Shown in pieces: positions 5,702 to 49,759 of a stretch of 57,457 nucleotides of DNA. This stretch comes from Candidatus Nanoarchaeia archaeon (GTDB taxonomy: Archaea; Nanobdellota; Nanobdellia; Woesearchaeales; GW2011-AR9), in assembly GCA_035289845.1 (NCBI GenBank), contig DATDWB010000048.1:1-57457 (forward strand). Direction: 5' to 3'. The translations under genes were made by a program, and so were the position numbers. The notes beneath the pieces were generated by a model, which did no database searches, had not been told where the DNA came from, and worked only from the letters and a program-made list of their open reading frames with translations. Every line of letters begins with the position of its first letter. Position 1 is the stretch's first letter.

Positions 5702-6019
5702 ATGTTCTGTCCCGAATGCGGCTCAATCTTAAGACCAAAGGAAAAGGCTGGTAAAAAAATTCTGTTTTGCAGTTGTGGGTACACTAAATCTCTAGCCAAG
5801 GGAGAAGCATCACCCCAAATTAAAGAAACGGTAGATGCGGCTAAGAAAATAGAAGTTATCGAAAAGTTAGATACTAACCCTAAAATCAGAATTACTTGTG
5901 AAAAGTGCGGCCACGGAGTAGCCTATTATTGGACCCAACAAACTAGAGGAGCAGATGAACCCGAAACTAGATTCTTCAAATGTGAAGAATGCAGCTACAC
6001 CTGGAGAGAATATGCTTAA
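5702..6019 (+). CDS. tfs: Transcription factor S (TFS) / RNA polymerase subunit M-like
   Basis: MFCPECGSIL...CSCGY N-terminal Zn ribbon and C-terminal CEKCGH...YYWTQQTRGADEPETRFFKCEECSYTWREY with the acidic DE loop. AGGTGA lies 5 nt upstream of ATG 5702; the track ORF starts at GTG 5693. Confidence 0.9.
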   Translation: MFCPECGSILRPKEKAGKKILFCSCGYTKSLAKGEASPQIKETVDAAKKIEVIEKLDTNPKIRITCEKCGHGVAYYWTQQTRGADEPETRFFKCEECSYTWREYA

Positions 6020-7310: not shown

Positions 7311-7437
7311 TATAGAGAACTTTGCAAAATTAGATGATTTATTAGCAAAGTTCTAAAGAGAAGTTTGAAATAGTCGTAATTTTGACCTTAAACAAACAAT
7401 ATATTAACCAAAATTATTTTTTTTCAAACTTCTCTAT
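7311..7437. repeat. Composite palindromic MITE-like repeat (type A hairpin plus type B element)
   Basis: A: gaactttgc-27 nt-gcaaagttc (7317-7353). B: agagaagtttgaaa...tttcaaacttctct (7357-7435). The same A+B composite lies at 20708-20830, and B occurs inverted at 15113-15190. Confidence 0.85.
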
Positions 7438-7539
7438 AATTAAATTATATGGTCTAATTAGGAGATATATTTTACATTAATTAATGTTAAATAATTAACT
7501 AACTAATAGGATTATAATCTAACCTATTTAGTAAATCCA

Positions 7540-11830: not shown

Positions 11831-12439
11831 TCACTTCTTATTTCTTCCTCGTTTCTTCACCGCTTCCAACCGCTGTAGCACTGTTTCAAAACCCATACTT
11901 TCTTCTTCATAGCCTTTCAAGACCGAAGTGAATATTTCCGGATACAACTGATTATGGGTGCTTTCCAACGCCCGATCCAACAGAAACAAGTCCACCGCCT
12001 TGTCCTCAACTTTCTCTGAAAAGAATGACAGCCCAAAATCAATAAAATTAACTTCCCCGGTTTCAGAATGCTTAATTAAATTTGAAGTAGTCAAATCGCC
12101 GTGAATGATGTCCGCTTGATGCAATTGAGCAATTCTATTTCCAATTTCCACTGCCAGCTGCTGAAAATTATTATCTCTTAACAATAGATCCTTTAATTTT
12201 TCTCCCGGCACAAAATCCATGGTTATTGACATCCGTTTATCAGAAAAGTCCCGTAAGTGGGGTGCTGGAAAATTTAGGTAGTCTAGCCTATCCAAAATTT
12301 TAGCTTCCCTTCTAGTCCTAAATTTACGCAAGGATTCATCTAATTGGGGCCAGCGGTAAGCTTTAGACAACCGTTCTTTTATTACTAAACGGTCATCTTG
12401 ATAGATTACTGCTTCCGCACCTTGAGCTAGTTTATTCAT
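11831..12439 (-). CDS. bud32: Bud32/PRPK kinase (KEOPS subunit)
   Basis: GAEAVIY glycine loop, VIKER, IIHGDLTTSNLI catalytic loop, IDFGLS; size is 202 aa. Confidence 0.8.
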   Translation of the reverse strand: MNKLAQGAEAVIYQDDRLVIKERLSKAYRWPQLDESLRKFRTRREAKILDRLDYLNFPAPHLRDFSDKRMSITMDFVPGEKLKDLLLRDNNFQQLAVEIGNRIAQLHQADIIHGDLTTSNLIKHSETGEVNFIDFGLSFFSEKVEDKAVDLFLLDRALESTHNQLYPEIFTSVLKGYEEESMGFETVLQRLEAVKKRGRNKK

Positions 12440-17588: not shown

Positions 17589-18167
17589 ATGTTCTATAAA
17601 CTAAAAGTTAAGGATTATATCCGAGTTCCGCCCAACATGTTTAGCTTTGGAAAAGAGGAATCGATCCTAAAAAACGTTAAAACCACTTATGAGAACTATG
17701 TTTCCAAAGATTTTGGGTTCGTAATCAATGTGATAACTGTCGGTGAAGTCCAGGAAGGAGTAATCGTGCCTGGGGATGGAGCCGCTTTTTATGAAACTGA
17801 GTTTGAATTACTGACCTATAAACCAGAATTAAATGAAATGGTATTTGGCAAGGTACGGGATATTACTGATTTTGGAGCTTTTATTGATATTGGTGGAGCG
17901 GAGGGTATGGTTCACATATCCCAAAGTATGGACGATTTCGTATCTTTCAGCAAGGATAAGGTTTTATTAGGTAAAAAAACCAACCGAAGTATAAAAGTTG
18001 GCGACCGCTGTAAAACTAGAATTATAGCTGTTAGTTATAAAGATCTAAACAGCCCTAAGATTGGTTTAACCATGCGCCAAGAAGGCCTAGGAAAACTAGA
18101 TTGGTTAGAAGAGCCTTTGCCCCTGGTCCAAACAAATTCCAAAAAAAATAAAGTAGAGTCTGAATAA
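17589..18167 (+). CDS. rpo7: DNA-directed RNA polymerase subunit E' (Rpo7)
   Basis: MFYKLKVKDYIRVPPNMF N-terminus and S1 domain (GKVRDITDFGAFIDIGGAEGMVHIS). Confidence 0.9.
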   Translation: MFYKLKVKDYIRVPPNMFSFGKEESILKNVKTTYENYVSKDFGFVINVITVGEVQEGVIVPGDGAAFYETEFELLTYKPELNEMVFGKVRDITDFGAFIDIGGAEGMVHISQSMDDFVSFSKDKVLLGKKTNRSIKVGDRCKTRIIAVSYKDLNSPKIGLTMRQEGLGKLDWLEEPLPLVQTNSKKNKVESE

Positions 18168-18188: not shown

Positions 18189-18377
18189 ATGTCTAAGAAA
18201 AAAGTTTGCAAAAAATGTAAATTGTTTGTGGAAGGAGACACCTGTCCAATTTGTAAGTCAGCTAACTTTAGCACCAGCTGGCAGGGAAGAGTTTATATAA
18301 CCGATACCGAAAATTCATTAATCGCCAATAAAATGGGACTAAAACTTAAAGGAGAATATGCCATCAAAGTAAGGTAG
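18189..18377 (+). CDS. spt4: Transcription elongation factor Spt4 / RpoE''
   Basis: CKKCKLFVEGDTCPICKS zinc ribbon plus SWQGRVYITD; sits immediately after rpo7, as in the conserved archaeal cluster. Confidence 0.85.
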   Translation: MSKKKVCKKCKLFVEGDTCPICKSANFSTSWQGRVYITDTENSLIANKMGLKLKGEYAIKVR

Positions 18378-20707: not shown

Positions 20708-20830
20708 AAAGAGAACTTTGCAAAATTAGATGATTTATTAGCAAAGTTCTAAAGAGAAGTTTGAATAGTCGTAATTTTGACCTTAAACAAACAATATATT
20801 AACCAAAATTACTTTTTTTCAAACTTATCT
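20708..20830. repeat. Composite palindromic MITE-like repeat (type A plus type B), second copy
   Basis: Near-identical to 7311-7437 with a few substitutions or indels (gaatagtc versus gaaatagtc; caaacttatct versus caaacttctct). Confidence 0.85.
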
Positions 20831-20882
20831 AAAATTTAATCCGAAATTGTATATAGAGAATAAATTATTTATACGGAATAAG

Positions 20883-23991: not shown

Positions 23992-25074
23992 CTACAACGT
24001 CAAATAATTTGCTACCCACAACATACCGGAATCACTATGGTAAAATTTGGTCTTGAACGGATTGCCATTAGCGGCAAATACTTCCATAAAATTTTTGTGC
24101 AATAAAATCAACTTGCGGTAACGCTCCTTATAGTACTGAGCCAAGGTCTGGTCTACTTCTTTTACCATCCGTACATATAACGGACCGATATGCATCCAGA
24201 TAGAATCAGATTCATAATTTTTAAGGAACATTTCCTGCCAGATAAACCTAGAATGTTCCCGGTTGGAGGTATATTTTAAAGGAAAGGGCTGATCCAATTC
24301 AGCTTTCTGGATTGATTTAATGGCTAACTGCAGCATTTCCACATCTGTGATTACCCCCAACAGAAAGGGGAATACATTTGCATCCCCCGACACATATCTT
24401 TTTCTCTCTAAATCATCATAAAAATAAGACCCATTCCAAAAATTTTTGGAGATAAGTTCAGGGTAATTATAATTAACAAGGGGATTGTAGAGCTTCATTT
24501 TATCCAAATCAGAAGCCAATAAGGCTACCATACAATTATCATAACAAGAACTCCGGCGCAAAGCAAAATCTTTAATGGAAGAAAAATACTTATCCGATCT
24601 AACTAACCCTGTATTCCGATCCACAATCTCCTCAAAGTAATTCTTAATTTGTAGATTAAGAAAATCCTTAAAATCATAATATGGAAACTTGGCAATTCTA
24701 AGAGCATGTATAAACCAAGGTAAAGAATCTACTGCTTCTACCGGAAAATTGAAAGCCTTTCCGCCGGGAGTTAAGGTAGTAGTAACCTGTTTATATTTCC
24801 TAAATCTATTCATGGCATATCTTAAAGTCTGCTGAACCTCCTTATTATACCCTAATTTTAATAACGATTGTACACACCAGCCAAAATCTCGAGTCCAAAA
24901 CTGAGGAAAATTTGTGGTAGAGGTTTGGAAAAATCGGCCATTCCAACAGTCACGAATTATTTTATGGCCTATTTCTTCCGCCGTTCCAGAATAATGTTTA
25001 GGAAACATCCGGCTCTTCCATCCTGATAGGAAAATTCTTGATCCTTGAGAAATATAATCCATTACCGTAGCCAT
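23992..25074 (-). CDS. Hypothetical protein, possibly an (alpha/alpha)6-barrel glycoside-hydrolase-like fold
   Basis: Only weak cues: FWTRDFGWCVQSLLKLGY resembles the W.RD motif of GDE_C/GH63-type enzymes; Trp/Tyr-rich. Confidence 0.3.
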   Translation of the reverse strand: MATVMDYISQGSRIFLSGWKSRMFPKHYSGTAEEIGHKIIRDCWNGRFFQTSTTNFPQFWTRDFGWCVQSLLKLGYNKEVQQTLRYAMNRFRKYKQVTTTLTPGGKAFNFPVEAVDSLPWFIHALRIAKFPYYDFKDFLNLQIKNYFEEIVDRNTGLVRSDKYFSSIKDFALRRSSCYDNCMVALLASDLDKMKLYNPLVNYNYPELISKNFWNGSYFYDDLERKRYVSGDANVFPFLLGVITDVEMLQLAIKSIQKAELDQPFPLKYTSNREHSRFIWQEMFLKNYESDSIWMHIGPLYVRMVKEVDQTLAQYYKERYRKLILLHKNFMEVFAANGNPFKTKFYHSDSGMLWVANYLTL

Positions 25075-25208: not shown

Positions 25209-25805
25209 CTACACATCACAATAATATTGTTTAAGTTCCTTACGCGCCCTATGAACTCTTGATGAAACTGTGCCAATTGGTATCTGCTCCATTTCCGCAA
25301 TATCCTCATAGTTATAACCCTCCATTACTAAGATAATCGCCCTCTTAAAAGGGTTATTATCTGGGAATATCAAATCTAAATCTTTGTATACTTCTTCAGC
25401 TTCCATAGCCAATCCAACTATTTGTTCCGGAGTATAATTATGACAGCCGCCCTGACCAATACGTTCCATCGCCGGAAGTAAATTATTATGATCAAACTTA
25501 GGTTTAGAAATATCTAACGGAGTGTTATTGCTGCCCTGGTTGCTTCTCTTACGCATATAATTTACAGTAGTGTTATGAGCTATGCAATACACCCATTTTC
25601 TAAAATCAGTTCCTGGTTTGAACTGGTCTCTGACTTTAGCCGCAACTTTCTCAAACACATCTTGAGCCAAATCTTCCGCCAGAATAGTGTCGCCTAGCAC
25701 TAAAGTTGAAATATATCGCCTTATCCCAGTAAAGTATTGTTTATATATTTCAGTAAAAGATCTTAATTCTCCTAGATCATTTATTTCTATCTCTAAAGGC
25801 CGCAT
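25209..25805 (-). CDS. Sigma-70 family (ECF-like) RNA polymerase sigma factor homologue, paralogue 1
   Basis: Region 2: AEDLAQDVFEKVAAKV...FRKWVYCIAHNTTVNYMRKRS. Region 4.2 HTH: MEGYNYEDIAEMEQIPIGTVSSRVHRARKELKQ. Confidence 0.8.
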   Translation of the reverse strand: MRPLEIEINDLGELRSFTEIYKQYFTGIRRYISTLVLGDTILAEDLAQDVFEKVAAKVRDQFKPGTDFRKWVYCIAHNTTVNYMRKRSNQGSNNTPLDISKPKFDHNNLLPAMERIGQGGCHNYTPEQIVGLAMEAEEVYKDLDLIFPDNNPFKRAIILVMEGYNYEDIAEMEQIPIGTVSSRVHRARKELKQYYCDV

Positions 25806-25826
25806 CTACCTAAAATTCTTAGACTA

Positions 25827-25835
25827 TTTTATAAA
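25827..25835 (-). promoter_or_regulatory. Archaeal TATA box (TTTATAAAA) about 21 nt upstream of the sigma-like paralogue 1 ATG, suggesting a leaderless transcript
   Basis: The minus strand reads atatttataaaatagtctaagaattttaggtagATG. The spacing puts a TSS at or near the ATG. Confidence 0.5.
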
Positions 25836-25861
25836 TATTGTTAAAAATTAATTATAAATTG

Positions 25862-26551
25862 TTAACTTAATCTAGTTAAATCTATTCCTGAGTCTTTTAT
25901 TATCTTACGCCCCCGATGCAGCCTGAGCAATACAGCATTCCGAGAAATGTTCATCAGTTCAGCAATTTCCTGGCAAGTATAACCCTGCAGCTCTAATTCT
26001 AGAGGTTCAACATAATCTTCCCAAGAACAACTTTTATAGGTACGGTCCTTAAAAATTGAATATATTCTAGAATTAAGCCGCTCTGCTTCCATTTTTTCCC
26101 CAACTAATTCTTCCGGGTTTTGATTATCTCTACTAGAATAACCAAGATTTTCTAAGTCCTGGACAAAATTATAATTATCTTGGATTAAACCGCTGAAGTT
26201 ATAATTTGACCCATTAGCTGTATAGATTGTATCAAAACTAATATTATTATAACCGAGGTTGGATTTTTTACGCATATAAACAATTACTGCGTTCCTAGCA
26301 ATCTTATAGACCCAACCTTTAAAATTTGTTCCAGGGGTGAATTTTTCTTCAGCCTTAGTCAAAACTTTAACAAAAACTTCTTGAGTTAAATCTTCAGCTA
26401 CAGCTTCGTTATCCCAATTAGTTAATCTTAAGATATACTTATTTATATCAGAATAATATTCCCTATAAACTTCTGTAAAAGTTTTTACCGTGCCCAGGTT
26501 ATTTATTTTCAATTCATCTTCTAGGCCCCTAGAGACTAACTTCGTAACCAT
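25862..26551 (-). CDS. Sigma-70 family (ECF-like) RNA polymerase sigma factor homologue, paralogue 2
   Basis: Region 2: AEDLTQEVFVKVLTKA...FKGWVYKIARNAVIVYMRKKS. Region 4.2: LQGYTCQEIAELMNISRNAVLLRLHRGRKIIKD. Start set at ATG 26551 because a TATA box overlaps the track start at 26572. Confidence 0.8.
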   Translation of the reverse strand: MVTKLVSRGLEDELKINNLGTVKTFTEVYREYYSDINKYILRLTNWDNEAVAEDLTQEVFVKVLTKAEEKFTPGTNFKGWVYKIARNAVIVYMRKKSNLGYNNISFDTIYTANGSNYNFSGLIQDNYNFVQDLENLGYSSRDNQNPEELVGEKMEAERLNSRIYSIFKDRTYKSCSWEDYVEPLELELQGYTCQEIAELMNISRNAVLLRLHRGRKIIKDSGIDLTRLS

Positions 26552-26571
26552 AAGCCTAAATTTATAAACCA

Positions 26572-26580
26572 TTTTATAAA
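26572..26580 (-). promoter_or_regulatory. Archaeal TATA box (TTTATAAAA) about 25 nt upstream of ATG 26551 of sigma-like paralogue 2
   Basis: The minus strand reads acatttataaaATGgtttataaatttaggcttATG. The geometry mirrors paralogue 1. Confidence 0.45.
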
Positions 26581-26629: not shown

Positions 26630-27376
26630 CTAATCCTTAACGCCGCTAACCGCCGAACCAAATCCTTCCAATTCAATTCTCTTGGCTAACTCATGTCCAC
26701 CGGTTGCTATGATCCGACCTTGGCTGATAATGCTAACTTGGTCTGGATTTAAATGCTCTAAGAATCTTCCATAATGAGTTATTACTACTACTCCTATTGG
26801 AGAGTTTTTCTTAATCTGTAAAATATTTTCCGCCACCATTTTAATGCCATCTACATCTAATCCAGAATCTGTTTCGTCCAGCAAAGCATATTTGGCTTCC
26901 AATAATAACAATTGCAATATCTCCGATCTCTTTTTCTCTCCCCCAGAGAAACCTTCATTTAAGTAGCGTTTACCGAATGCTGGATCTAACCCTAAGAGGG
27001 CCATCTTTTCTTTCAATAAACTATTAAATTTTATTACCGAAATTTTTTCCCCGCGTAAACTATTCAATGCGCTCCGTAAAAAGTTGCTTATTGTAACCCC
27101 CGAAACAGAAGGTGGATTCTGCAACGATAAAAAAAGTCCAGCTTTGGCCCGCAGTTCAATTTTTTCAGTTGTTATATCTTTCCCATCTAAGATTATTCTC
27201 CCTTGAGTTATCTTGTAGCTGGGATGACCCATTATAGTATTAACCAAAGTTGATTTGCCAGATCCATTAGGGCCCATAAGAACGTGAATTTGACCCGGAT
27301 TAAAAACTAAATTGATACCCTTAATTATTTTGGCACCCTCAACTTCTACATGCAGATCAATTATTTCTAAAGTCAT
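26630..27376 (-). CDS. sufC: Fe-S cluster assembly ATPase SufC
   Basis: GPNGSGKST Walker A, FSGGEKKR signature, ALLDETDSGLD Walker B. Confidence 0.9.
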   Translation of the reverse strand: MTLEIIDLHVEVEGAKIIKGINLVFNPGQIHVLMGPNGSGKSTLVNTIMGHPSYKITQGRIILDGKDITTEKIELRAKAGLFLSLQNPPSVSGVTISNFLRSALNSLRGEKISVIKFNSLLKEKMALLGLDPAFGKRYLNEGFSGGEKKRSEILQLLLLEAKYALLDETDSGLDVDGIKMVAENILQIKKNSPIGVVVITHYGRFLEHLNPDQVSIISQGRIIATGGHELAKRIELEGFGSAVSGVKD

Positions 27377-27377
27377 T

Positions 27378-28985
27378 TTAAATTGTATTCTCCGCTAGCA
27401 TTTTTTGTAAAGTAAATAATGGAAGTAAAGCACATTTTATTCGAGCTGGACTGATGGGTATACCTAACAATTTCAATACTTCCTCGGGAGTAAAATTATT
27501 AATTTCATCTCGACAACGGCCTTTGATCTCGTCCGTGAACAGAGAAGCTGCTGCCTGACTTATAACACATCCCCTGCCGGTGAAAGATATTTCTGAGATT
27601 CGGTCTTCAGCTAAATTCAAATATAAAGTGATTTCATCACCGCACACCGGGTTCAACTCCCGATGAGAAAAAGTATAAATCTCTAATTTACCATTATTAT
27701 GAGGATTTTTATAATGATCCAAAACATTTTCCCGGCAAATTTCTTGCTCTTCAGATAAATCACCGCTTAATTCATAACCTTTAACTGAAGCAGCAACAAT
27801 TTCTTCAATCACTTCAACTAATTTATCTATTTCCTCAGTTGAATTATATAAATAAAATGAAGCCCGGATTGTACCCGATAACCCTAAAGAATTTATCAGC
27901 GGCATAGCGCAATGATACCCGGCTCTAACGGCAATTCCCGCTTGATCTAAACTTTCCGCTAAGTCATGCGGGTGAATAATACCCTTATCACTATTGACCG
28001 TAAAAGAAAAGATTGAACCCCGGTTTACAGCTTCATTAGGACCAATGATATTAACCCCCTTAATTGCGGAAATTTTATCTAGGGCATGGGAAGTTAAATT
28101 GTCCAGGTGCCTTTTAATTTCAGTCATTCCAATTTGCTGTAAATATTTAATTGCTGCGGCTAAACCAATAGCTTGAGCGATTGGCGGAGTTCCTGCTTCA
28201 AATTTATAAGGCAGATCATTCCATTGGGCTGATTCAAAAGTAACTTCCTTAATCATATCTCCCCCCGCCAGGAAAGGTTCCATTCCTGCTAATAGTTCTT
28301 CTCGGCCATACAGTACCCCTATTCCAGTAGGCCCGCCCATCTTGTGCCCGGAGAAAGCCAAAAAATCACAGCCTAATTCTTTAACCTGTAGATTCAAGCT
28401 GGACGCGGTTTGAGCTGCATCCACGATCATCACAGCACCTACTTGATGCGCCAAATAAGCTAACTCCTTAACTGGATTAATAGTACCCAGCACATTAGAC
28501 AGGTGAGTTACTGAAACAATTTTAGTCTTAGAACTAATCATCTGTTTAGCCTCTTCCATATTCAACCGGTAGTCAGCAGTGATGGAGATATATTTTATAG
28601 TCAATCCTTTACGTTTAGCTAATTGCTGCCAAGGAACAATATTGCTGTGATGCTCCATCACCGTAAGTACTATTTCATCCCCCGGCATTAAATTATGACC
28701 TAATGAATAAGCGAGCAAATTCAAACCTTCAGTGGTTCCTTTAGTAAAAATAATTTCGGAGAATTTAGCACCAATGAATTTAGCAACTGTTTCCCTAGCT
28801 TCTTCATAATCTAAGGTAGCTTTTTGAGATAATTGGTAGGTACCTCGATGAACATTAGCATTATTTTTACGGTAAAAATTTTCCAAAGCAGCTAATACAA
28901 CCGCCGGTTTTTGAGTAGTTGAACTACTATCTAAGTAAATTAGATGGGGATGCTGCTGTAATAAAGGATAATCTTGTCGAAGCAT
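27378..28985 (-). CDS. sufS: Cysteine desulfurase SufS fused to a C-terminal SufU/IscU-like scaffold domain
   Basis: SGHKMGGPTGIGVLYG (PLP lysine) and RAGYHCAMP (catalytic Cys loop). The C-terminal ~130 aa carry LDHYKNPHN, NPVCGDEITLYL, GRGCVISQAAAS and ARIKCALLP. Confidence 0.85.
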   Translation of the reverse strand: MLRQDYPLLQQHPHLIYLDSSSTTQKPAVVLAALENFYRKNNANVHRGTYQLSQKATLDYEEARETVAKFIGAKFSEIIFTKGTTEGLNLLAYSLGHNLMPGDEIVLTVMEHHSNIVPWQQLAKRKGLTIKYISITADYRLNMEEAKQMISSKTKIVSVTHLSNVLGTINPVKELAYLAHQVGAVMIVDAAQTASSLNLQVKELGCDFLAFSGHKMGGPTGIGVLYGREELLAGMEPFLAGGDMIKEVTFESAQWNDLPYKFEAGTPPIAQAIGLAAAIKYLQQIGMTEIKRHLDNLTSHALDKISAIKGVNIIGPNEAVNRGSIFSFTVNSDKGIIHPHDLAESLDQAGIAVRAGYHCAMPLINSLGLSGTIRASFYLYNSTEEIDKLVEVIEEIVAASVKGYELSGDLSEEQEICRENVLDHYKNPHNNGKLEIYTFSHRELNPVCGDEITLYLNLAEDRISEISFTGRGCVISQAAASLFTDEIKGRCRDEINNFTPEEVLKLLGIPISPARIKCALLPLFTLQKMLAENTI

Positions 28986-29018
28986 TTTTAGTAGTAACCT
29001 TGTAAATCAATTGACAAA

Positions 29019-30410
29019 TCAACTGACGCTTCCCTCCATTTCTAATTCAATCAACTTGTTTAATTCTACTGCATACTCTAACGGCAGCTCTCTAACAATT
29101 GGTTCAATGAACCCGGATACCACCATCTTAACTGCTTCTTCTTCACTCAACCCCCTGCTTTTAAGATAAAATATGGTCTCTTCACTAATCTTGCCCACCC
29201 TTGCTTCGTGAGCCGCATCCACTTCGTTATTTTCAATTTTTAGGATAGGGATAGTATTAGAAACAGATAAATCATCAATTAATAATCCATCACAGACTAC
29301 GCTGGTAGTGGAATTCTTAGCCCCAGGAGTTATCTGGACTAAACCTCGATAACTAGATATTCCTCCATCTCGGCTTATACTTTTGGAAGTTATGGTTGAG
29401 GAAGTATTGGGGGCCAAATGAATTACTTTTGCTCCTACGTCTTGAATTTGATCTTTGCCGGCAAAAGCAATACTTAAACTGTCCGAACGGGATCTTTCTC
29501 CACGCAAAATTGAACTGGGATATAACATCGTCACTCCGCTGCCCATATTACCCGAAACCCAGATCATAGTCGCATTTTTATCCACAATAGCTCGTTTGGT
29601 GTTTAAATTGTAAACGTTCCGGCTCCAATTTTCTATGCTGGTATAGCGCATCTTAGCATTATCTTTAACAAATATTTCTACACAACCCGCGTGTAGAGAT
29701 TGGGTTGAATAACGTGGTGAACTGCATCCTTCAATATAATGCAGCTCCGCACCCTCATCAATAATAATTAATGTGTGTTCAAATTGCCCTCCTTTTTGAG
29801 CATTCATCCTAAAATAAGCCTGAAGTGGCAGCTCTACTTTAACCCCTTTAGGCACATAAATAAAAGTACCGCCGCTCCATACTGCTCCATGCAGCATAAT
29901 AAATTTATGATCATTTATGGGGATGCAGGAAGTCATAAAATAATTTTTAACTAAATCTGGAAATTTTTGCAGAGCTACATCCATATTTTCAAATATAACT
30001 CCTTGATCCTGTAATTTTTTTTGCAGATTATGGTAGACTATAGAAGAATCATATTGTGCTCCTACCCCGGCTAAAGACTTTTTCTCCGCTTCCGGTATAC
30101 CCAGTTTATCAAACGTGTTCTTTATTTCTGGAGGAACTTTATCCCAATTATCCGTTTCCTGGGCATTGGGATCAGCAAAGTAGATAATGTTATCCAATTC
30201 CAATTTTTTTAAGCTTGGACCCCAATTAGGCAGGGGTGTTTTTAGATACAACTTTAACGCTTCCAATCGTTTAGCCAGCATCCATTCGGGTTCATTCTTG
30301 GTCTTAGAAATTAGCCGGACAATTTCCTCGTTAATACCCGGCTGAGCCATAAATTTTGATTTGTGCTCATCCGCTTGGTCATACAATTCTCGATTGATAG
30401 TAATGCTCAT
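29019..30410 (-). CDS. sufB: Fe-S cluster assembly scaffold SufB
   Basis: Typical SufB length (463 aa) and motifs: HTLIIIDEGAELHYIEGCS, DAAHEARVGKISEE, FYLKSRG. Confidence 0.9.
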   Translation of the reverse strand: MSITINRELYDQADEHKSKFMAQPGINEEIVRLISKTKNEPEWMLAKRLEALKLYLKTPLPNWGPSLKKLELDNIIYFADPNAQETDNWDKVPPEIKNTFDKLGIPEAEKKSLAGVGAQYDSSIVYHNLQKKLQDQGVIFENMDVALQKFPDLVKNYFMTSCIPINDHKFIMLHGAVWSGGTFIYVPKGVKVELPLQAYFRMNAQKGGQFEHTLIIIDEGAELHYIEGCSSPRYSTQSLHAGCVEIFVKDNAKMRYTSIENWSRNVYNLNTKRAIVDKNATMIWVSGNMGSGVTMLYPSSILRGERSRSDSLSIAFAGKDQIQDVGAKVIHLAPNTSSTITSKSISRDGGISSYRGLVQITPGAKNSTTSVVCDGLLIDDLSVSNTIPILKIENNEVDAAHEARVGKISEETIFYLKSRGLSEEEAVKMVVSGFIEPIVRELPLEYAVELNKLIELEMEGSVS

Positions 30411-30793
30411 TTATATCCCCCCGTTAGGCAACCAATCTCTTGTGGTTCACAATGTTCCGGCAGATCCGAAAATTGATGATGTATCTGGCAGAGGACTTTA
30501 GTTTCCCTAAAATGCTGTAATAAACGCTGGGTTTCCCGTAAATAGCTTAATTTATCTTTTAATAGGGAAACCGATTTCCTTATTTCGGCTACTGCCTTTT
30601 CATTAAATTCTATCCTATGCCCCCGTTTATTGCTGGTATATTGAGAGATGGTAGCAGTTTTTATACCTAACAGCTCTGCAATATCTTTTTGTTTCATCCC
30701 TTGCTCTTTTAAGAACAAAGCTATATATCTACGCATAGTAGGAATTAAGTAAAAGGTCTCAATTTCCTGGGGCAATAAGAGCTTGTTAACCAT
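30407..30793 (-). CDS. XRE-type HTH transcriptional regulator with C-terminal Cys/His motif; first gene of the suf operon
   Basis: MKQKDIAELLGIKTATISQYTSNKRG HTH. C-terminal CQIHHQFSDLPEHCEPQEIGC. Overlaps the sufB start by 4 nt. Confidence 0.65.
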   Translation of the reverse strand: MVNKLLLPQEIETFYLIPTMRRYIALFLKEQGMKQKDIAELLGIKTATISQYTSNKRGHRIEFNEKAVAEIRKSVSLLKDKLSYLRETQRLLQHFRETKVLCQIHHQFSDLPEHCEPQEIGCLTGGYK

Positions 30794-33209: not shown

Positions 33210-33496
33210 GGGAAAAGAGGTAAGTATAAAGATTTATAAATTGTATGGAGATGTTTTAAAAAAGAAGCACATTTCTGCTTGAATTATGAAGGAATTAGAT
33301 TTTATTGCTACTTATATGATAGATTCACCCTTCACCAATTCGTACCTTATGATAATCCTCATGGCCTATCCCTGAACGAATCTAAAGGAAAGCTATCCTT
33401 TTAACCCCTGATTTTGTATTCACTACGTAGTTAATAATTACTGAAAGGTTTATAAATTAGGCTTATTTTAAGGTTAAAAAGGCTTAAATAAATACC

Positions 33497-33988
33497 ATGA
33501 GGCAATTTAATACTAGATATGGGACAATAGATATCTCTGAAGGGATACTAGTTGAAGAAGAGGAAAACCTAGGAATAAATTTATTTCCCAAAACTGGCAA
33601 AAGTGGAAGGAGAGCAGAACAAAGAATCAGAGAAAACTATTGGGAAAGAGAGATAGCCTTACTACAGTTATTTAGTTTTTATCTTGAAAGCTCCACTAAT
33701 CATCATCCACGATCACCTCGAATGTTGGATGCTCATGGCGAGGTTATAGCTGGAGTATGGGTTTATTATGATAATACCGAAGCTAGACCAGTGCAAGAGT
33801 GGCTAGATGAACATAAAGAAAATCATGATGCCTTGTATTTGCTGGTCTGCAATGCAAAGGGAAATATCCCCCAGCAGCTGCCAGAATCCTATATAATATT
33901 ACCCCATGAACTAATCAGCCAATACGGACTGCTTACAGAAATAGAAAAATTAACTTCGATTAGAATACCCCAACTAGGGATAAGATAA
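33497..33988 (+). CDS. Hypothetical protein (163 aa); its stop is one nt from the dhs start
   Basis: ORF track. It ends at 33988 and dhs starts at 33990. Confidence 0.45.
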   Translation: MRQFNTRYGTIDISEGILVEEEENLGINLFPKTGKSGRRAEQRIRENYWEREIALLQLFSFYLESSTNHHPRSPRMLDAHGEVIAGVWVYYDNTEARPVQEWLDEHKENHDALYLLVCNAKGNIPQQLPESYIILPHELISQYGLLTEIEKLTSIRIPQLGIR

Positions 33989-34983: not shown

Positions 34984-35583
34984 ATGAATTATACGCCCTT
35001 GCCGCCAGTAGAGGAAGTTACCCAACACTTTAGTAGATCGTTAGTAGTTGAAGAAAAGTATACTACTCGCGTTTATAAAGTACGATGCGGTTCAGAATTG
35101 TTCGTACTAAAATTTAGTTCTGATCCTATATTTAAACCAAGAATTAGTTTAGAGGGAGAGGCCTTAGAACTAATTAAGGGCCTAAGGACCGTGCCAAAAT
35201 TAATAGATAGATTTGAAGACGGAGAATTAACGGCCATCCTTAAAAGCCATATGGCTGGGGAAGTATTAAAAGAATATAGCTATACTACCAATAATTTTGG
35301 TGATAAATGCATGCTGCCAATCAGGAAAGAAGAAGCATTACAAACAGTAATTACTATTCATGCTCGTGGAGTATCTGCCTTGGATTTACATTGCGGCAAT
35401 GTTCTAATTCATAATGGACAAATAAATTTATTTGATTTTGATTCCTGTATATTAAGTGATAGGACAGCCTCAGAGATTTTTGAAGAAGAAAAAATAGTTG
35501 ATTTTTTAAGATTAAATGAACTATTAAATCAACTGTCAGGATCAAAAAACAAAAGTAATTCTCTCTACAAATATATTATTTAG
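34984..35583 (+). CDS. Minimal protein-kinase-like fold protein (Bud32/RIO/Kdo-kinase-like), paralogue 1
   Basis: FVLKF (beta3 Lys), HARGVSALDLHCGNVLI (catalytic loop D..N), LFDFDS (DFD metal site); size is 199 aa. Confidence 0.6.
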   Translation: MNYTPLPPVEEVTQHFSRSLVVEEKYTTRVYKVRCGSELFVLKFSSDPIFKPRISLEGEALELIKGLRTVPKLIDRFEDGELTAILKSHMAGEVLKEYSYTTNNFGDKCMLPIRKEEALQTVITIHARGVSALDLHCGNVLIHNGQINLFDFDSCILSDRTASEIFEEEKIVDFLRLNELLNQLSGSKNKSNSLYKYII

Positions 35584-35626: not shown

Positions 35627-36247
35627 ATGACCCATAATTATCCCCAAAACCCAAATTTAATAGAACTGGCTCAATCCATAGCTGACAAAATAGATCCCGG
35701 ATTAAAAGTGGTAGAACATTATTCTAATACCCAAGCTTATCGAGTTATCAAAGATGATGATACTTATATACTTAAGATAGATAAAGCCGCCAATAGATAT
35801 ATTGATACTGAAATCACCGCATTACGGCGTCTGGCAGACTTACCTAAAATACCCAATCTAATAGATGTTTATATGGATAAATCTGAACAATATAATTGGC
35901 TGCTAAGAGAAAATGTAGAAGGTAAATTATTTGCTGAATATATTAATTGGTTTTATCAGCCAGAGCATGATCCCGTTTTTGTGCAGAAAGATGCTGGAAA
36001 AGAATTCAAAAAATTGGTTAAACAAATCCACCGGCGCGGAGTATGCAGATTAGACCTGCATGTTGACAATGTAATCATTGACCGGGACGGTTATCTCTGT
36101 TTGTTTGATTTCAACAGCAGCTACATTGTTTCTTGGCTCTCGGTATATTTTAGAGCTGATTCTCCTCGGCCTGAGGATCTTAAGGAGATGATGGGTTTTT
36201 TAAAAATGTTAAAAGCTGAGCGGGGGCAAGCCCCCCACAATAGTTAA
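35627..36247 (+). CDS. Minimal protein-kinase-like fold protein, paralogue 2
   Basis: YILKID, HRRGVCRLDLHVDNVII, LFDFNSS; same architecture as 34984..35583. Confidence 0.6.
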   Translation: MTHNYPQNPNLIELAQSIADKIDPGLKVVEHYSNTQAYRVIKDDDTYILKIDKAANRYIDTEITALRRLADLPKIPNLIDVYMDKSEQYNWLLRENVEGKLFAEYINWFYQPEHDPVFVQKDAGKEFKKLVKQIHRRGVCRLDLHVDNVIIDRDGYLCLFDFNSSYIVSWLSVYFRADSPRPEDLKEMMGFLKMLKAERGQAPHNS

Positions 36248-36679: not shown

Positions 36680-36704
36680 GCCATACATAGGTTGGTACAT
36701 CTTA
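36680..36704. repeat. 23S processing-stem half (3' flank), perfectly complementary to 39782-39806
   Basis: gccatacataggttggtacatctta is the exact reverse complement of taagatgtaccaacctatgtatggc at 39782-39806 (25 bp). Confidence 0.85.
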
Positions 36705-36705
36705 A

Positions 36706-39745
<3,040 letters not shown>

Positions 39746-39917: not shown

Positions 39918-40032
39918 TGGACCCGTCGGGATTTGAACCCGAGACCCCCTGCTTTCTATGACGTTAACTAATCTTTCACGTTCTTTTTTTAACGCATGCA
40001 AGGCAGGTGCTCTCCCACTGAGCTACGGGCCC
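39918..40032 (-). tRNA. tRNA-Ala (anticodon UGC) with a 43-nt intron at the canonical 37/38 position, in the 16S-23S spacer
   Basis: The reverse complement reads GGGCCCG-TA-GCTC-AGTGGGA-GAGC-A-CCTGC-CTTGCA[43 nt]A-GCAGG-GGGTC-TCGGG-TTCAAAT-CCCGA-CGGGTCC-A. The G3:U70 Ala identity pair is present. Confidence 0.85.
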
Positions 40033-40906
40033 AGTAGAGTTTTTCTAACATTCCTTCTAAAAATGCTGGTTGTTAGTTTTATTCTTGCTGTTTTTCTTAT
40101 ATTCTCTTATCTTCCATTCATCTTTAGGAATAAATTCCCACAGATCCTATGAAAATATGAAAAAAAGGAGGTGATCCAGCCGTAGGTTCCCCTACGGCTA
40201 CCTTGTGACGACTTAACCCACCTCACCAAATCTGGGTTTGATACAACTAAAAGCTGGATCTCACCCAAACCCAACTCGGTTGGTTTGACGGGCGGTGTGT
40301 GCAAAGAGCAGGGACATATTCACCGGACCGTGATGAAGTCCGATTACTAGGAATTCCGTTGTCATGAGGGCGAATTACAGCCATCAATCTAAACTAAGAT
40401 AAGGTTTAGAGGTTTAGCTTCGCCTTTCGGCGTTGCAGCCCATTGTCCTTACCATTGTTGCGCGCGTGTAGCCCAGCAGATTCGGAGCATACAGACCTAC
40501 CGTGGCCCAAACCTTCCTCCCTGTTTCCAGGGCAGTCTCCATAAGGTGCGCAGTCATCCTAAAGGACCTGCTTGCAATTATGGATATGGGTCTCGCTCGT
40601 TACCTCACTTAAGAGGACACCTTACGGCACGAGCTGACGACGGCCATGCACTACCTCTCGGCTCGTTAGGTAAGACCTTTAACCTGACCTTCATTCTGCC
40701 GTCGCTGCTGGTGAGATTCTCTGCGTAGAGTTAGATTAAACCGCACGCCGCACTCCTTGTGGTGCTCTCCCGCCAATTCCTTTAAGTTTCAGCCTTGCGA
40801 CCGTACTTCCCAGGCGGTGAACTTAATACCTTCGCGTCGACACTGCGTATCCACGAAGAATACACAACATCTAGTTCACAGCGTTTACAGCTAGGACTAC
40901 TCGGGT

Positions 40907-41001
40907 CTTTAACTGGGTTAATGTCTTTGATTATTTTTCGATTTTTGTTTAGTATTTTTTTATTGAACAAACCAACAAAAACCATAAGCAAAAACCCCAG
41001 A
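40907..41001 (-). other. 95-nt AT-rich insertion (putative intron or expansion) in the 790 loop (helix 24) of 16S rRNA
   Basis: The RNA sense strand reads GGAUUAGAU[95 nt]ACCCGAGUAGUCC, whereas the universal sequence is GGAUUAGAUACCC.GGUAGUCC. The insert ends can pair (CUGGGGUU / AACCCAG). Confidence 0.75.
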
Positions 41002-41096
41002 ATCTAATCCGGTTTGCTCCCCTAGCTTTCGTCCCTCACCGTCAGACCCGTTCTCGTTAGGCGCCTTCGCCACAGGTGGTCCTCCGGAGATTATAG

Positions 41097-41138
41097 CACT
41101 GTAAAAGTGCCAGACACTTTTAGTATGCCTGACAACAT
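41097..41138 (-). other. About 42-nt insertion in the 690 loop (helix 23) of 16S rRNA
   Basis: The RNA sense strand reads GCGGUAAAAU[~42 nt]CUAUAAUCUCCGGAGGACCACCUGUGGCGAAGGCG, whereas archaeal 16S normally reads GGUGAAAUCCUAUAAUC.... The insert contains a perfect 7-bp hairpin AAAAGUG-UCUGG-CACUUUU. Confidence 0.65.
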
Positions 41139-41911
41139 ATTTTACCGCTCCCTCCGGAATACCCCTAACGCCTCCCGGTCCCTAGACAAACAGTATCTCA
41201 AGCACGCCGTTTTGTTAAGCGCAACGATTTCACCCAAGACTTTTTTATCCGGCTACGAACGCTTTAGGCCCAATAAATGTGATTGCCACTTGTGGCGCAG
41301 GTGTTACCGCGGCGGCTGGCACCCGTCTTACCCACCACTTATTCGCCAAGCTATTTACACTTGACAAAAGCCCATGCAATGCATGAGCACTAGGAGTTCC
41401 CTTATCGCACTTGCGTACATTGTAAAGTTTTCGCGCCTGCTGCACCCCGTAGGGCTAGGGCCAGTGTCTCAGTGCCCTTCTCCGGGCTACCTCTTTCAAG
41501 GCCCGTACTGATCAATGGCTTGGTAGTCCGTTACACTACCAACTACCTAATCAGCCGCCAACTCATCCTTAGGCATTGCTTTTGAGCAAAAGAACATTCC
41601 AGTATAATTTACTTATCCGGATTTAAGCCCAGTTTCCCAGGGTTATTCCGGACCTAAGGGCAGATTATTGACGTGTTACTGAGCATTCAGCCTGTGTCTC
41701 CGAAGAGACCCTCCGACTTGCATGGCTTAATCGAACTCCCATAGCAGCAATCTCCCGCAGGATCAACGGGAATTGTTTAACGATCCTGTATTTGTATGGT
41801 CATAAAGCTGTACTTATTAGAATTTATCGTCCAAAATATTTTTGGATCACCCTATTCACACTCAAGGTTAATTGAGCATACATTTTGTTTATACTTTGAG
41901 AAAGTAAGTTA

Positions 41912-49674: not shown

Positions 49675-49759
49675 AGTTAAATCTACACCTTTCCCTTTTT
49701 AAATATATTCCACTAATTTAACAATAACTATAAATTTAAGCCTATTTTACCTAAACAAA

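Follow-up and report, generated by a model that had tools for sequence, protein, structure and literature searches.

A tandem pair of divergent ECF-type sigma-70 genes resident in an archaeal chromosome

Contig DATDWB010000048.1 of the Candidatus Nanoarchaeia archaeon assembly GCA_035289845.1, analysed here over positions 1 to 57,457 (the window), carries two adjacent genes, which we call sigA' and sigB', that encode sigma-70 factors of the extracytoplasmic function (ECF) type. Sigma factors are the defining initiation factors of bacterial RNA polymerase (RNAP); archaea use TBP, TFB and TFE. Both genes are complete, apparently expressible and resident in the archaeal chromosome, and they have duplicated and diverged with both sigma domains kept. 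From these features we infer, tentatively and with a little less than even confidence, that the two proteins are domesticated sequence-specific regulators controlled by their own synthesis. An earlier note on this DNA, made from the sequence, overstated the novelty of the pair: sigma-70 genes have been reported in many DPANN genomes, mainly of Woesearchaeota, as family fam00359 (Castelle et al. 2021, Front Microbiol, PMC8204110).

Both proteins have the domain composition of ECF sigma factors

The two open reading frames (ORFs) lie where the earlier note had placed them and contain verbatim the peptide motifs that it quoted (Table 1). Its assignment of sigma regions 2 and 4 to both is borne out by Sigma70_r2, Sigma70_r4_2 and TIGR02937 matches that all exceed their cut-offs. 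In Pfam, Sigma70_r2 (PF04542) scores 41.0 bits in sigA' and 46.3 bits in sigB' (gathering threshold 24) and Sigma70_r4_2 (PF08281) scores 35.3 and 29.0 bits (gathering threshold 25.7); Sigma70_r4 is also above its gathering threshold in sigA'. Sigma regions 1 and 3 have no Pfam match in either protein, even at E ≤ 1. The hallmark of the ECF type, a protein without regions 1.1 and 3 and with a short, variable linker, is thus present in both, as judged by Pfam, the lengths of 198 and 229 residues and the AlphaFold2 (AF2) models. The NCBIfam sigma70-ECF superfamily model TIGR02937 scores 63.6 bits for sigA' and 67.7 bits for sigB' (cut-off 42.9), and neither protein reaches an NCBIfam equivalog cut-off. 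The best sub-models below cut-off belong to the SigM subfamily (74–77 bits, cut-off 148), and the ECF12 SigH equivalog TIGR02947 (SigH_actino) scores 70 and 58.7 bits, far under its cut-off of 251.55. A sequence search of the PDB with a profile of the two proteins gave Mycobacterium tuberculosis SigH as the best match (E 4e-17), followed by SigE, AlgU, E. coli sigmaE and SigW.

The AF2 models each consist of two confident helical domains joined by a disordered linker, with a mean predicted local distance difference test score (pLDDT) of 82.5 for sigA' and 76.3 for sigB'. The linker spans residues 93–120 in sigA' and 102–141 in sigB', and the confident parts of the sigB' model are sigma2 (residues 25–98) and sigma4 (residues 146–220). 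Foldseek returned 30 PDB matches at E ≤ 0.001, nearly all of them bacterial ECF sigma factors and the remainder other sigma-family proteins or sigma–RNAP complexes. The modelled sigma2 superimposes on region 2 of E. coli sigmaE (PDB 4lup) with a root-mean-square deviation (RMSD) of 1.1 Å over 74 columns, and the modelled sigma4 on region 4 of SigR (PDB 5fgm) with an RMSD of 1.8 Å over 62 columns. Taken with the profile scores, these matches identify sigA' and sigB' as true sigma-70 genes of the ECF family (group 4) with bacterial affinity. An N-terminal beta-hairpin in the sigA' model was considered as a special feature and dropped, because in the alignment this region corresponds to the N-terminus usual for ECF factors (G and F consensus columns); the sigB' model does not reproduce it (pLDDT <50).

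DNA- and core-binding residues are retained in both copies

Region 2 of sigA' contains DLAQDVF, which is region 2.2, the site of the residues that contact the beta' coiled-coil, and FKPGTDFRKWVYCIAHN, which comprises the specificity loop and the -10 pocket residues W71, I75 and N78. In an alignment of 61 sequences, the columns conserved to at least 90% are, in sigA' numbering, D45, Q48, W71, I75, N78, L146, I169, T179, V180 and R188. The consensus residue is found in sigA' at every one of them except L146, where it has I, and sigB' keeps them except for L146 (again I) and the P-x-G-T turn of the helix-turn-helix (HTH), which reads S-R-N-A; over the whole turn, the usual P-x-G-T-V has diverged to S-R-N-A-V in this paralogue. 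The near-invariant residues of bacterial ECF factors, namely D, Q, W, I and N of region 2 and I, V and R of region 4, are accordingly present in both proteins, and the sigma4 recognition helix keeps an S/L-R-x-H-R-x-R pattern.

Residue roles were taken from a HMMER alignment to SigH read against the SigH–RNAP structures (Li et al. 2019, PMC6411747), a study according to which sigma factors in general conserve the residues that touch the beta' coiled-coil. The residues equivalent to W81, I85 and N88, which form the T-10 pocket and wedge of SigH, and to F72 and T76 of its specificity loop are conserved in both paralogues. The position of SigH N77 is N in sigB' and D in sigA', and Y90, Y94 and Q98 of SigH are not conserved. 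Over 67 columns the majority residue of the bacterial sequences is matched at 58% of positions by sigA' and 55% by sigB', compared to 72 ± 11% (minimum 52%) for the bacterial sequences themselves, which places the two proteins as divergent yet inside the range of the family.

The pair resides in an archaeal contig

Complete archaeal 23S (36,696–39,731) and 16S (40,166–41,773) rRNA genes are present in the window (Rfam), and family scans together with direct reading of the sequence find the sigma pair flanked on either side by informational genes of archaeal type. In agreement with the earlier note, the window encodes Rpo7, Spt4 and TFS, the last with the QTRGADEP zinc-ribbon motif, and no bacterial RNAP subunit genes (rpoB, rpoC) are found in its 57 kb. 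It also encodes Gins51, ribosomal proteins S24e and S27, deoxyhypusine synthase, an ATP-dependent DNA ligase, archease and FtsZ. The earlier remark that the sigma genes share the style of their neighbours is supported by all three measures of composition. Their GC contents of 0.374 and 0.336 compare with a gene mean of 0.374 ± 0.023, their synonymous codons have log-likelihoods under the usage of the other genes of z = +0.56 and +0.44, and in tetranucleotides the segment correlates with the window at 0.893, where chunks of 1.4 kb reach 0.874 ± 0.115.

The gene order sufC–sigB'–sigA'–orf360 recurs in at least five assemblies, on contigs that are 99.5–100% identical to the window: two contigs from JGI sample 3300002502, and ENA ERZ28563625, ERZ4903072 and ERZ4903137. 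Because the same order occurs in at least five assemblies, a chimeric join is very unlikely. Among these contigs, which are at least 99.5% identical, sigA' shows a single change, A76V. The contig names point to aquifer metagenomes, and from these names and the literature the host is probably a DPANN lineage from such aquifers. The one observation in favour of an assembly or binning artefact, in which a bacterial fragment had been spliced into an archaeal contig, is that every named homologue is bacterial. Against this stand the archaeal genes and archaeal-type promoters that directly flank the pair on both sides, the codon usage and composition, which are indistinguishable from those of the remaining window, and the identical junctions in the JGI, ENA/MEGAHIT and scaffold assemblies; mis-binning was also excluded in the published survey (Castelle et al. 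2021, PMC8204110). We regard the artefact reading as vanishingly improbable and effectively refuted already.

The paralogues form an orphan lineage

Aligned end to end, the proteins share 37% identity (E 6e-44), confirming the paralogy that had been noted. In a BLASTP comparison with all retrieved proteins the best non-self match of each is the other paralogue (132–134 bits), and the next best match scores 89 bits at 34% identity. Since the two are mutual best matches, the simplest history is one acquisition followed by a tandem duplication in this lineage. The earlier proposal of acquired and tandemly duplicated sigma genes in a real archaeal contig, with host-adapted composition and promoters, therefore stands. 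The retention of hallmark residues in both copies at 37% identity suggests long residence under retained constraint.

Word-indexed searches with each protein returned the same population and, at about 30% identity, bacterial ECF sigma factors, including those of Acidobacteriota, Thermoanaerobaculia, Negativicutes and Saprospiraceae. When the two-sequence profile was run through HMMER exhaustively against 1.84 billion cluster representatives, just two clusters fell below 1e-30, and this population is the source of both; the next match scored 94 bits, and outside this population nothing exceeded about 34% identity among these representative proteins. Every named relative of sigA' and sigB' is bacterial, and a profile search that included AT-rich distant matches again gave bacterial names alone, among them Actinomycetota and Patescibacteria. 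No close relative was found in GTDB representative genomes, for which the search patterns were too narrow, in metagenome contigs or in IMG/VR viral contigs. The sigma pair is therefore an orphan lineage in current databases. Two low-GC metagenome loci, L017 and L026, were considered as archaeal relatives and ruled out, as both are bacterial. Directly after the sigma gene of L017 lies a gene for a zf-HC2 anti-sigma factor, an arrangement that is absent at sigA' and sigB'. A cognate anti-sigma factor encoded alongside is typical of ECF sigma factors, though not obligatory.

Two proteins in a read-derived catalogue, P0084 and P0085, are identical to sigB' (window 25,862–26,572) save for in-frame internal deletions. 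One variant loses part of the N/Y-rich linker and the other loses regions 2.2–2.4 together with the linker. Either assembly artefacts or genuine variants within the population may account for them.

Archaeal promoters precede both genes

In a survey of the 70 nt upstream of 51 ORFs of the window, aligned to one another, the recurring promoter pattern is an A-rich stretch followed by TTTATA(A/T)A. TTTATA starts 27–33 nt before the start codon in 13 of the 51 genes, compared to 1.75 expected from the remainder of the upstream regions (Poisson P = 4.6e-8). The TATA boxes of sigA' and sigB' start at -30 and -29, which is the modal promoter distance of the window, and that of sigA' is preceded by AACAATA, an A-rich sequence resembling the TFB recognition element (BRE). 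The earlier note had described a TATA box at the spacing of a leaderless transcript before each ATG. This is correct for sigA'; for sigB' it is correct only from ATG 26,551 and fails from the first in-frame ATG at 26,572, which the box directly abuts. Because the promoter geometry fits ATG 26,551 and the public gene call P0083 for sigB' is the 229-residue product, the start is most likely 26,551 rather than 26,572. Judged by position, both genes would yield archaeal transcripts with no leader or a very short one.

A T5 run follows the stop codon of sigB', and sigB', sigA' and the downstream gene for a 360-residue protein each have a TATA box of their own, 28 nt upstream in the case of the last. 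On this account the three genes look like separate transcription units downstream of the suf operon. No Rfam families and no bacterial promoter or terminator signals rose above shuffled controls between 24.9 and 26.75 kb. Bacterial ECF sigma genes typically have an autoregulatory promoter of the ECF type; a GGAAT-N17-GTT match to the SigR/SigH-type pattern, 59–83 nt before the sigA' ATG, could have arisen by chance and offers a weak lead.

A second TTTATAAA box lies closer to the sigB' start, within GGTTTATAAATTTAGGCTTAT, which recurs nearly identically at 33,447–33,466 (plus strand). The octamer TAGGCTTA occurs at 26,548–26,568 (minus), 33,447–33,466 (plus) and 49,737–49,744 (minus), three copies against 3.9 expected by chance in the window. 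Every copy adjoins a TATA-like box, which is TTTATAAA at two sites and TTTATAG at the third, and GGTTTATAAAT(T)TAGGCTTAT is nearly identical in the start region of sigB' and upstream of a 163-residue ORF at 33,497. The element may be a promoter-proximal operator; its placement alone is suggestive, its count is that of chance, and we do not claim it as one.

No anti-sigma gene accompanies the pair

The sigma pair lies downstream of a suf operon on the same (minus) strand, as had been noted, in the order HTH–sufB–sufS/U–sufC. A promoter TATA box is found upstream of the HTH gene only. The statement that no anti-sigma-like gene is adjacent agrees with the searches: Pfam finds no anti-sigma or zf-HC2 domain in the neighbours of sigA' and sigB', and no ORF of at least 40 residues in the window contains the HxxxCxxC motif of zinc-associated anti-sigma (ZAS) proteins. 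The gene immediately downstream of sigA', which occupies the position of a bacterial anti-sigma gene, encodes the 360-residue protein. This protein has no Pfam match at E ≤ 1, no PDB sequence match with E <0.05 and no HxxxCxxC motif; it was examined as an anti-sigma candidate and rejected, as it has no anti-sigma signature and no family or PDB sequence match. Its motifs FWTRDFGW and GDANVFPFLLG are perhaps reminiscent of (alpha/alpha)6-barrel glycosidases. The gene is followed by one for a family-2 glycosyltransferase.

In the suf operon, the gene at 27,378–28,985 (minus) fuses SufS (Aminotran_5) to a NifU_N/SufU-type scaffold domain in one 535-residue protein, and the leading HTH_3 gene overlaps sufB by 4 nt. 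The layout is bacterial-like in look and might share the foreign origin of the sigma genes. Three genes for RIO/Bud32-like protein kinases of 199–206 residues are found at 11,831–12,439 (minus), 34,984–35,583 (plus) and 35,627–36,247 (plus), the latter two adjacent. Some bacterial ECF sigma factors without an anti-sigma factor are activated by Ser/Thr kinases.

Table 1 Position of the sigma gene pair, its domains and promoter elements, and selected neighbouring genes in the window.
Feature	Position	Strand	Description or basis
sigA'	25209..25805	minus	198-residue ECF-type sigma-70 family protein: sigma2, disordered linker, sigma4
sigB'	25862..26551	minus	229-residue ECF-type sigma-70 family paralogue of sigA'
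sigB', alternative in-frame start	26572	minus	ATG giving 236 residues; ORF list
Sigma region 2 of sigA'	25542..25745	minus	residues 21–88; Pfam, SigH alignment, Foldseek
Sigma region 4 HTH of sigA'	25227..25343	minus	residues 155–193, IPIGTVSSRVHRARKEL; Pfam r4_2 and r4, Foldseek
Sigma region 2 of sigB'	26261..26467	minus	DLTQEVF and FTPGTNFKGWVYKIARN; Pfam 36–104 of the 236-residue frame, alignment
Sigma region 4 HTH of sigB'	25904..26008	minus	ISRNAVLLRLHRGRKII; Pfam r4_2 29.0 bits, consensus table
TATA box of sigA'	25835->25828	minus	TTTATAAA; starts 30 nt upstream of ATG
TATA box of sigB'	26580->26573	minus	TTTATAAA; starts 29 nt upstream of ATG 26551
Second box before sigB'	26561..26568	minus	TTTATAAA; 17 nt upstream of ATG 26551, within GGTTTATAAATTTAGGCTTAT
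SigR/SigH-type ECF promoter pattern	25888->25864	minus	GGAAT-N17-GTT; weak lead
Gene for 360-residue protein	23992..25074	minus	own TATA box; immediately downstream of sigA'
Upstream operon	26630..30793	minus	HTH_3 protein (30407–30793), sufB, sufS–sufU fusion, sufC; Pfam, genomic context
Rpo7	17589–18167		
Spt4	18189–18377		
TFS	5702–6019		QTRGADEP zinc-ribbon motif

Comparison with known systems

The published DPANN survey excluded mis-binning by means of co-encoded proteins, found no anti-sigma factors and called the mechanism unclear (Castelle et al. 2021, PMC8204110). The present locus resembles the sigma-70 genes of that survey in the archaeal marker genes alongside on the contig, the absence of an anti-sigma factor and the coexistence with archaeal transcription machinery, and contigs that match the window also come from aquifer metagenome assemblies. 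Unlike the present analysis, that paper gives no sequence-level anatomy. What is new here is the anatomy of a tandem divergent pair, the corrected start of sigB', the promoter geometry, the structural models, the retained residues and the orphan status. Literature searches found no experimental characterization of archaeal sigma-70 genes.

Among characterized sigma factors, M. tuberculosis SigH and Streptomyces SigR (ECF12) share with sigA' and sigB' the sigma2–linker–sigma4 architecture, the conserved W/I/N -10 pocket and the motifs (P/H)GTN(L/F)xxW(L/V)YxIxxN and IPIGTVxSRxHRxR. The archaeal pair differs from them in an identity of about 25–30%, in the absence of a gene for a ZAS anti-sigma factor (RshA/RsrA), in the archaeal RNAP of the host and, in sigB', in a longer, N/Y-rich linker. 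HrpL-type factors are one kind of ECF sigma factor without an anti-sigma factor. Other ECF groups that lack one, e.g. ECF203, are controlled transcriptionally or otherwise (Casas-Pastor et al. 2021); that reclassification of ECF factors nowhere mentions archaea. The likeness to such groups lies in the lack of a co-encoded anti-sigma factor and in a regulation that presumably operates via synthesis of the sigma factor itself; unlike sigA' and sigB', they still work with bacterial core RNAP.

Two further comparisons concern the sigma modules in isolation. The HTH modules of the sigma4/LuxR-like type bind DNA in archaeal regulators such as Bat HTH_10, Tfx and LuxR solos (PMC5413776), and sigA' and sigB' likewise have a sigma region 4-type HTH as a DNA-binding module in an archaeal cell. 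Those regulators are without sigma region 2, whereas sigA' and sigB' are complete ECF sigma factors whose region 2 scores highly. The sigma-like domain of PhyR, an anti-anti-sigma factor, is a precedent for an ECF sigma fold that works without binding RNAP. Unlike PhyR, which carries a receiver domain, sigA' and sigB' have no receiver and retain their binding residues.

Candidate roles of sigA' and sigB'

In the reading that we favour, a bacterial ECF-type (group 4) sigma-70 gene would have been taken up by the archaeal lineage via horizontal transfer and duplicated in place, and both copies would have become fully domesticated. Within the archaeal cell the proteins would regulate transcription of the host's own genes in a sequence-specific manner, binding DNA through the sigma4 recognition helix, and possibly also the -10 pocket of sigma2, near TBP/TFB-dependent promoters. 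As no anti-sigma partner is present, the activity of each would be set by the amount made from its own promoter. In archaea, gene-specific regulation is mostly the work of HTH proteins of bacterial type placed next to promoters that depend on TBP/TFB, and modules of the sigma4-like HTH kind already serve in this way there, so that a domesticated regulator is the most economical explanation. Several points weigh against it. Free ECF sigma factors are generally poor DNA binders without core RNAP, and the match of the pair to the bacterial consensus lies at the low end (0.58 for sigA' and 0.55 for sigB', compared to 0.72 ± 0.11). The SigR/SigH-type pattern GGAAT-N17-19-GTT is not enriched in the window (11 occurrences against 8.55 ± 2.83 expected), and no convincing shared operator was found. 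All contigs represent one near-clonal population and therefore give no power for a population dN/dS analysis, and the sigB' deletion variants P0084 and P0085, unless they are artefacts, could point to relaxed selection.

Both copies retain region 2.2 and the -10 pocket, though a simple HTH regulator needs neither. This leaves room for a more radical alternative, a hybrid initiation factor, which we consider unlikely without dismissing it. Sigma2 would dock on the clamp coiled-coil of the archaeal RNAP (Rpo1N), the site of TFE and Spt4/5 and the structural counterpart of the bacterial beta' coiled-coil; it would capture non-template single-stranded DNA while sigma4 reads the upstream duplex, so that promoter opening is assisted or redirected at a subset of promoters. 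The conserved region 2.2 motif (DLxQ[DE]xF) and the W/I/N pocket and wedge residues, whose known roles are single-stranded DNA capture and melting only, fit such a function, and sigma2 scores at least as high as sigma4 in both proteins (Pfam), a persistence that would be unexpected were just an HTH needed. In addition, TFE-beta is reported to be absent from DPANN, and the sigma linker and the TFIIB B-reader follow analogous paths into the polymerase cleft. However, the linkers of sigA' and sigB' are poorly conserved and predicted to be disordered, the conserved residues may persist because they stabilize the fold, the clamp coiled-coils of bacteria and archaea resemble each other only modestly in sequence, and the Rpo1 and Rpo2 of this organism lie outside the window. 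That sigA' and sigB' truly serve the archaeal RNAP as initiation factors, with sigma2 on the Rpo1 clamp and sigma4 on an upstream element, seems rather unlikely to us.

We assign a similarly low likelihood to the pair being functionless leftovers of horizontal transfer whose decay is still pending. The orphan status of the genes in the databases searched, their position at the low end of the family consensus, the deletion variants P0084 and P0085 and the lack of any cognate machinery in view would all fit such remnants; yet both frames are intact at 37% identity with the hallmark residues in each, the composition is fully ameliorated, each gene has a well-placed native TATA box, and small genomes like this one are expected to shed useless genes fast. 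It is less probable again that the sigma fold has been reused for protein–protein signalling in the manner of PhyR, possibly with a partner such as the adjacent 360-residue protein. A weak PhyR_sigma2 match (Pfam, E 0.042, below cut-off), the absence of bacterial RNAP and anti-sigma genes from the window and the uncharacterized gene directly downstream, at the usual bacterial anti-sigma position, point in this direction. The DNA- and RNAP-binding residues of PhyR are degenerate, whereas the recognition-helix residues (SRxHRxR) of sigma4 and the -10 pocket are retained here; neither protein has a receiver (no Response_reg match) or other signalling domain, and the downstream gene has its own promoter and no recognizable anti-sigma features. 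Action on a bacterial RNAP, whether the enzyme of a bacterial partner or host or a bacterial-type one specified by another part of the genome, would account for the retention of residues that bind the bacterial core enzyme and promoters, and we hold it to be highly improbable. Bacterial rpoB and rpoC are absent from the 57-kb window, and no archaeon is known to carry a bacterial RNAP. Of the three roles suggested in the earlier note, namely a stand-alone regulator, a partner of the archaeal RNAP and a factor acting on a bacterial partner, the last is disfavoured because both N-termini lack a hydrophobic stretch resembling a signal, a secretion-system context is missing and the promoters in use are native.

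Other features of the window

A direct repeat of about 135 nt, about 95% identical between its copies, is found in two intergenic regions (7313–7445 and 20,708–20,840, plus strand). It has internal inverted repeats, GAACTTTGC...GCAAAGTTC and AGAGAAGTTTGAA...TTCAAACTT[A/C]TCT, and could be an element resembling a miniature inverted-repeat transposable element (MITE) or a structured non-coding RNA. In the 16S–23S spacer, a 115-nt tRNA match at 39,918–40,032 (minus) is detected by Rfam and not by ARAGORN, which suggests that the tRNA contains an intron. The 16S rRNA gene exceeds the Rfam model in length by about 130 nt. A contig from another sample (L087, 9900–14,327) has the same DNA ligase neighbourhood as the window from about 50,400 onwards and departs from it after the DUF483 gene, where DUF2238 and Exo_endo_phos genes replace those for a MarR-like HTH protein and a subtilase of 1107 residues. 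This indicates strain-level variation in gene content.

Significance

As sigma-70 genes in DPANN archaea have already been published, the value of this locus lies in making a mechanistic question testable and not in discovery. It offers a compact test case, with two diverged paralogues, intact DNA- and core-binding motifs, defined promoters and no anti-sigma factor. The upkeep of these genes by an archaeon, their duplication and their native expression signals would mean either that the sigma fold is usable outside its native enzyme or that a bacterial module interfaces with an archaeal/eukaryotic-type polymerase. If the latter is true, a hybrid factor in a lineage without TFE-beta would be a natural hybrid of two initiation systems, a sigma module working within the TBP/TFB system.

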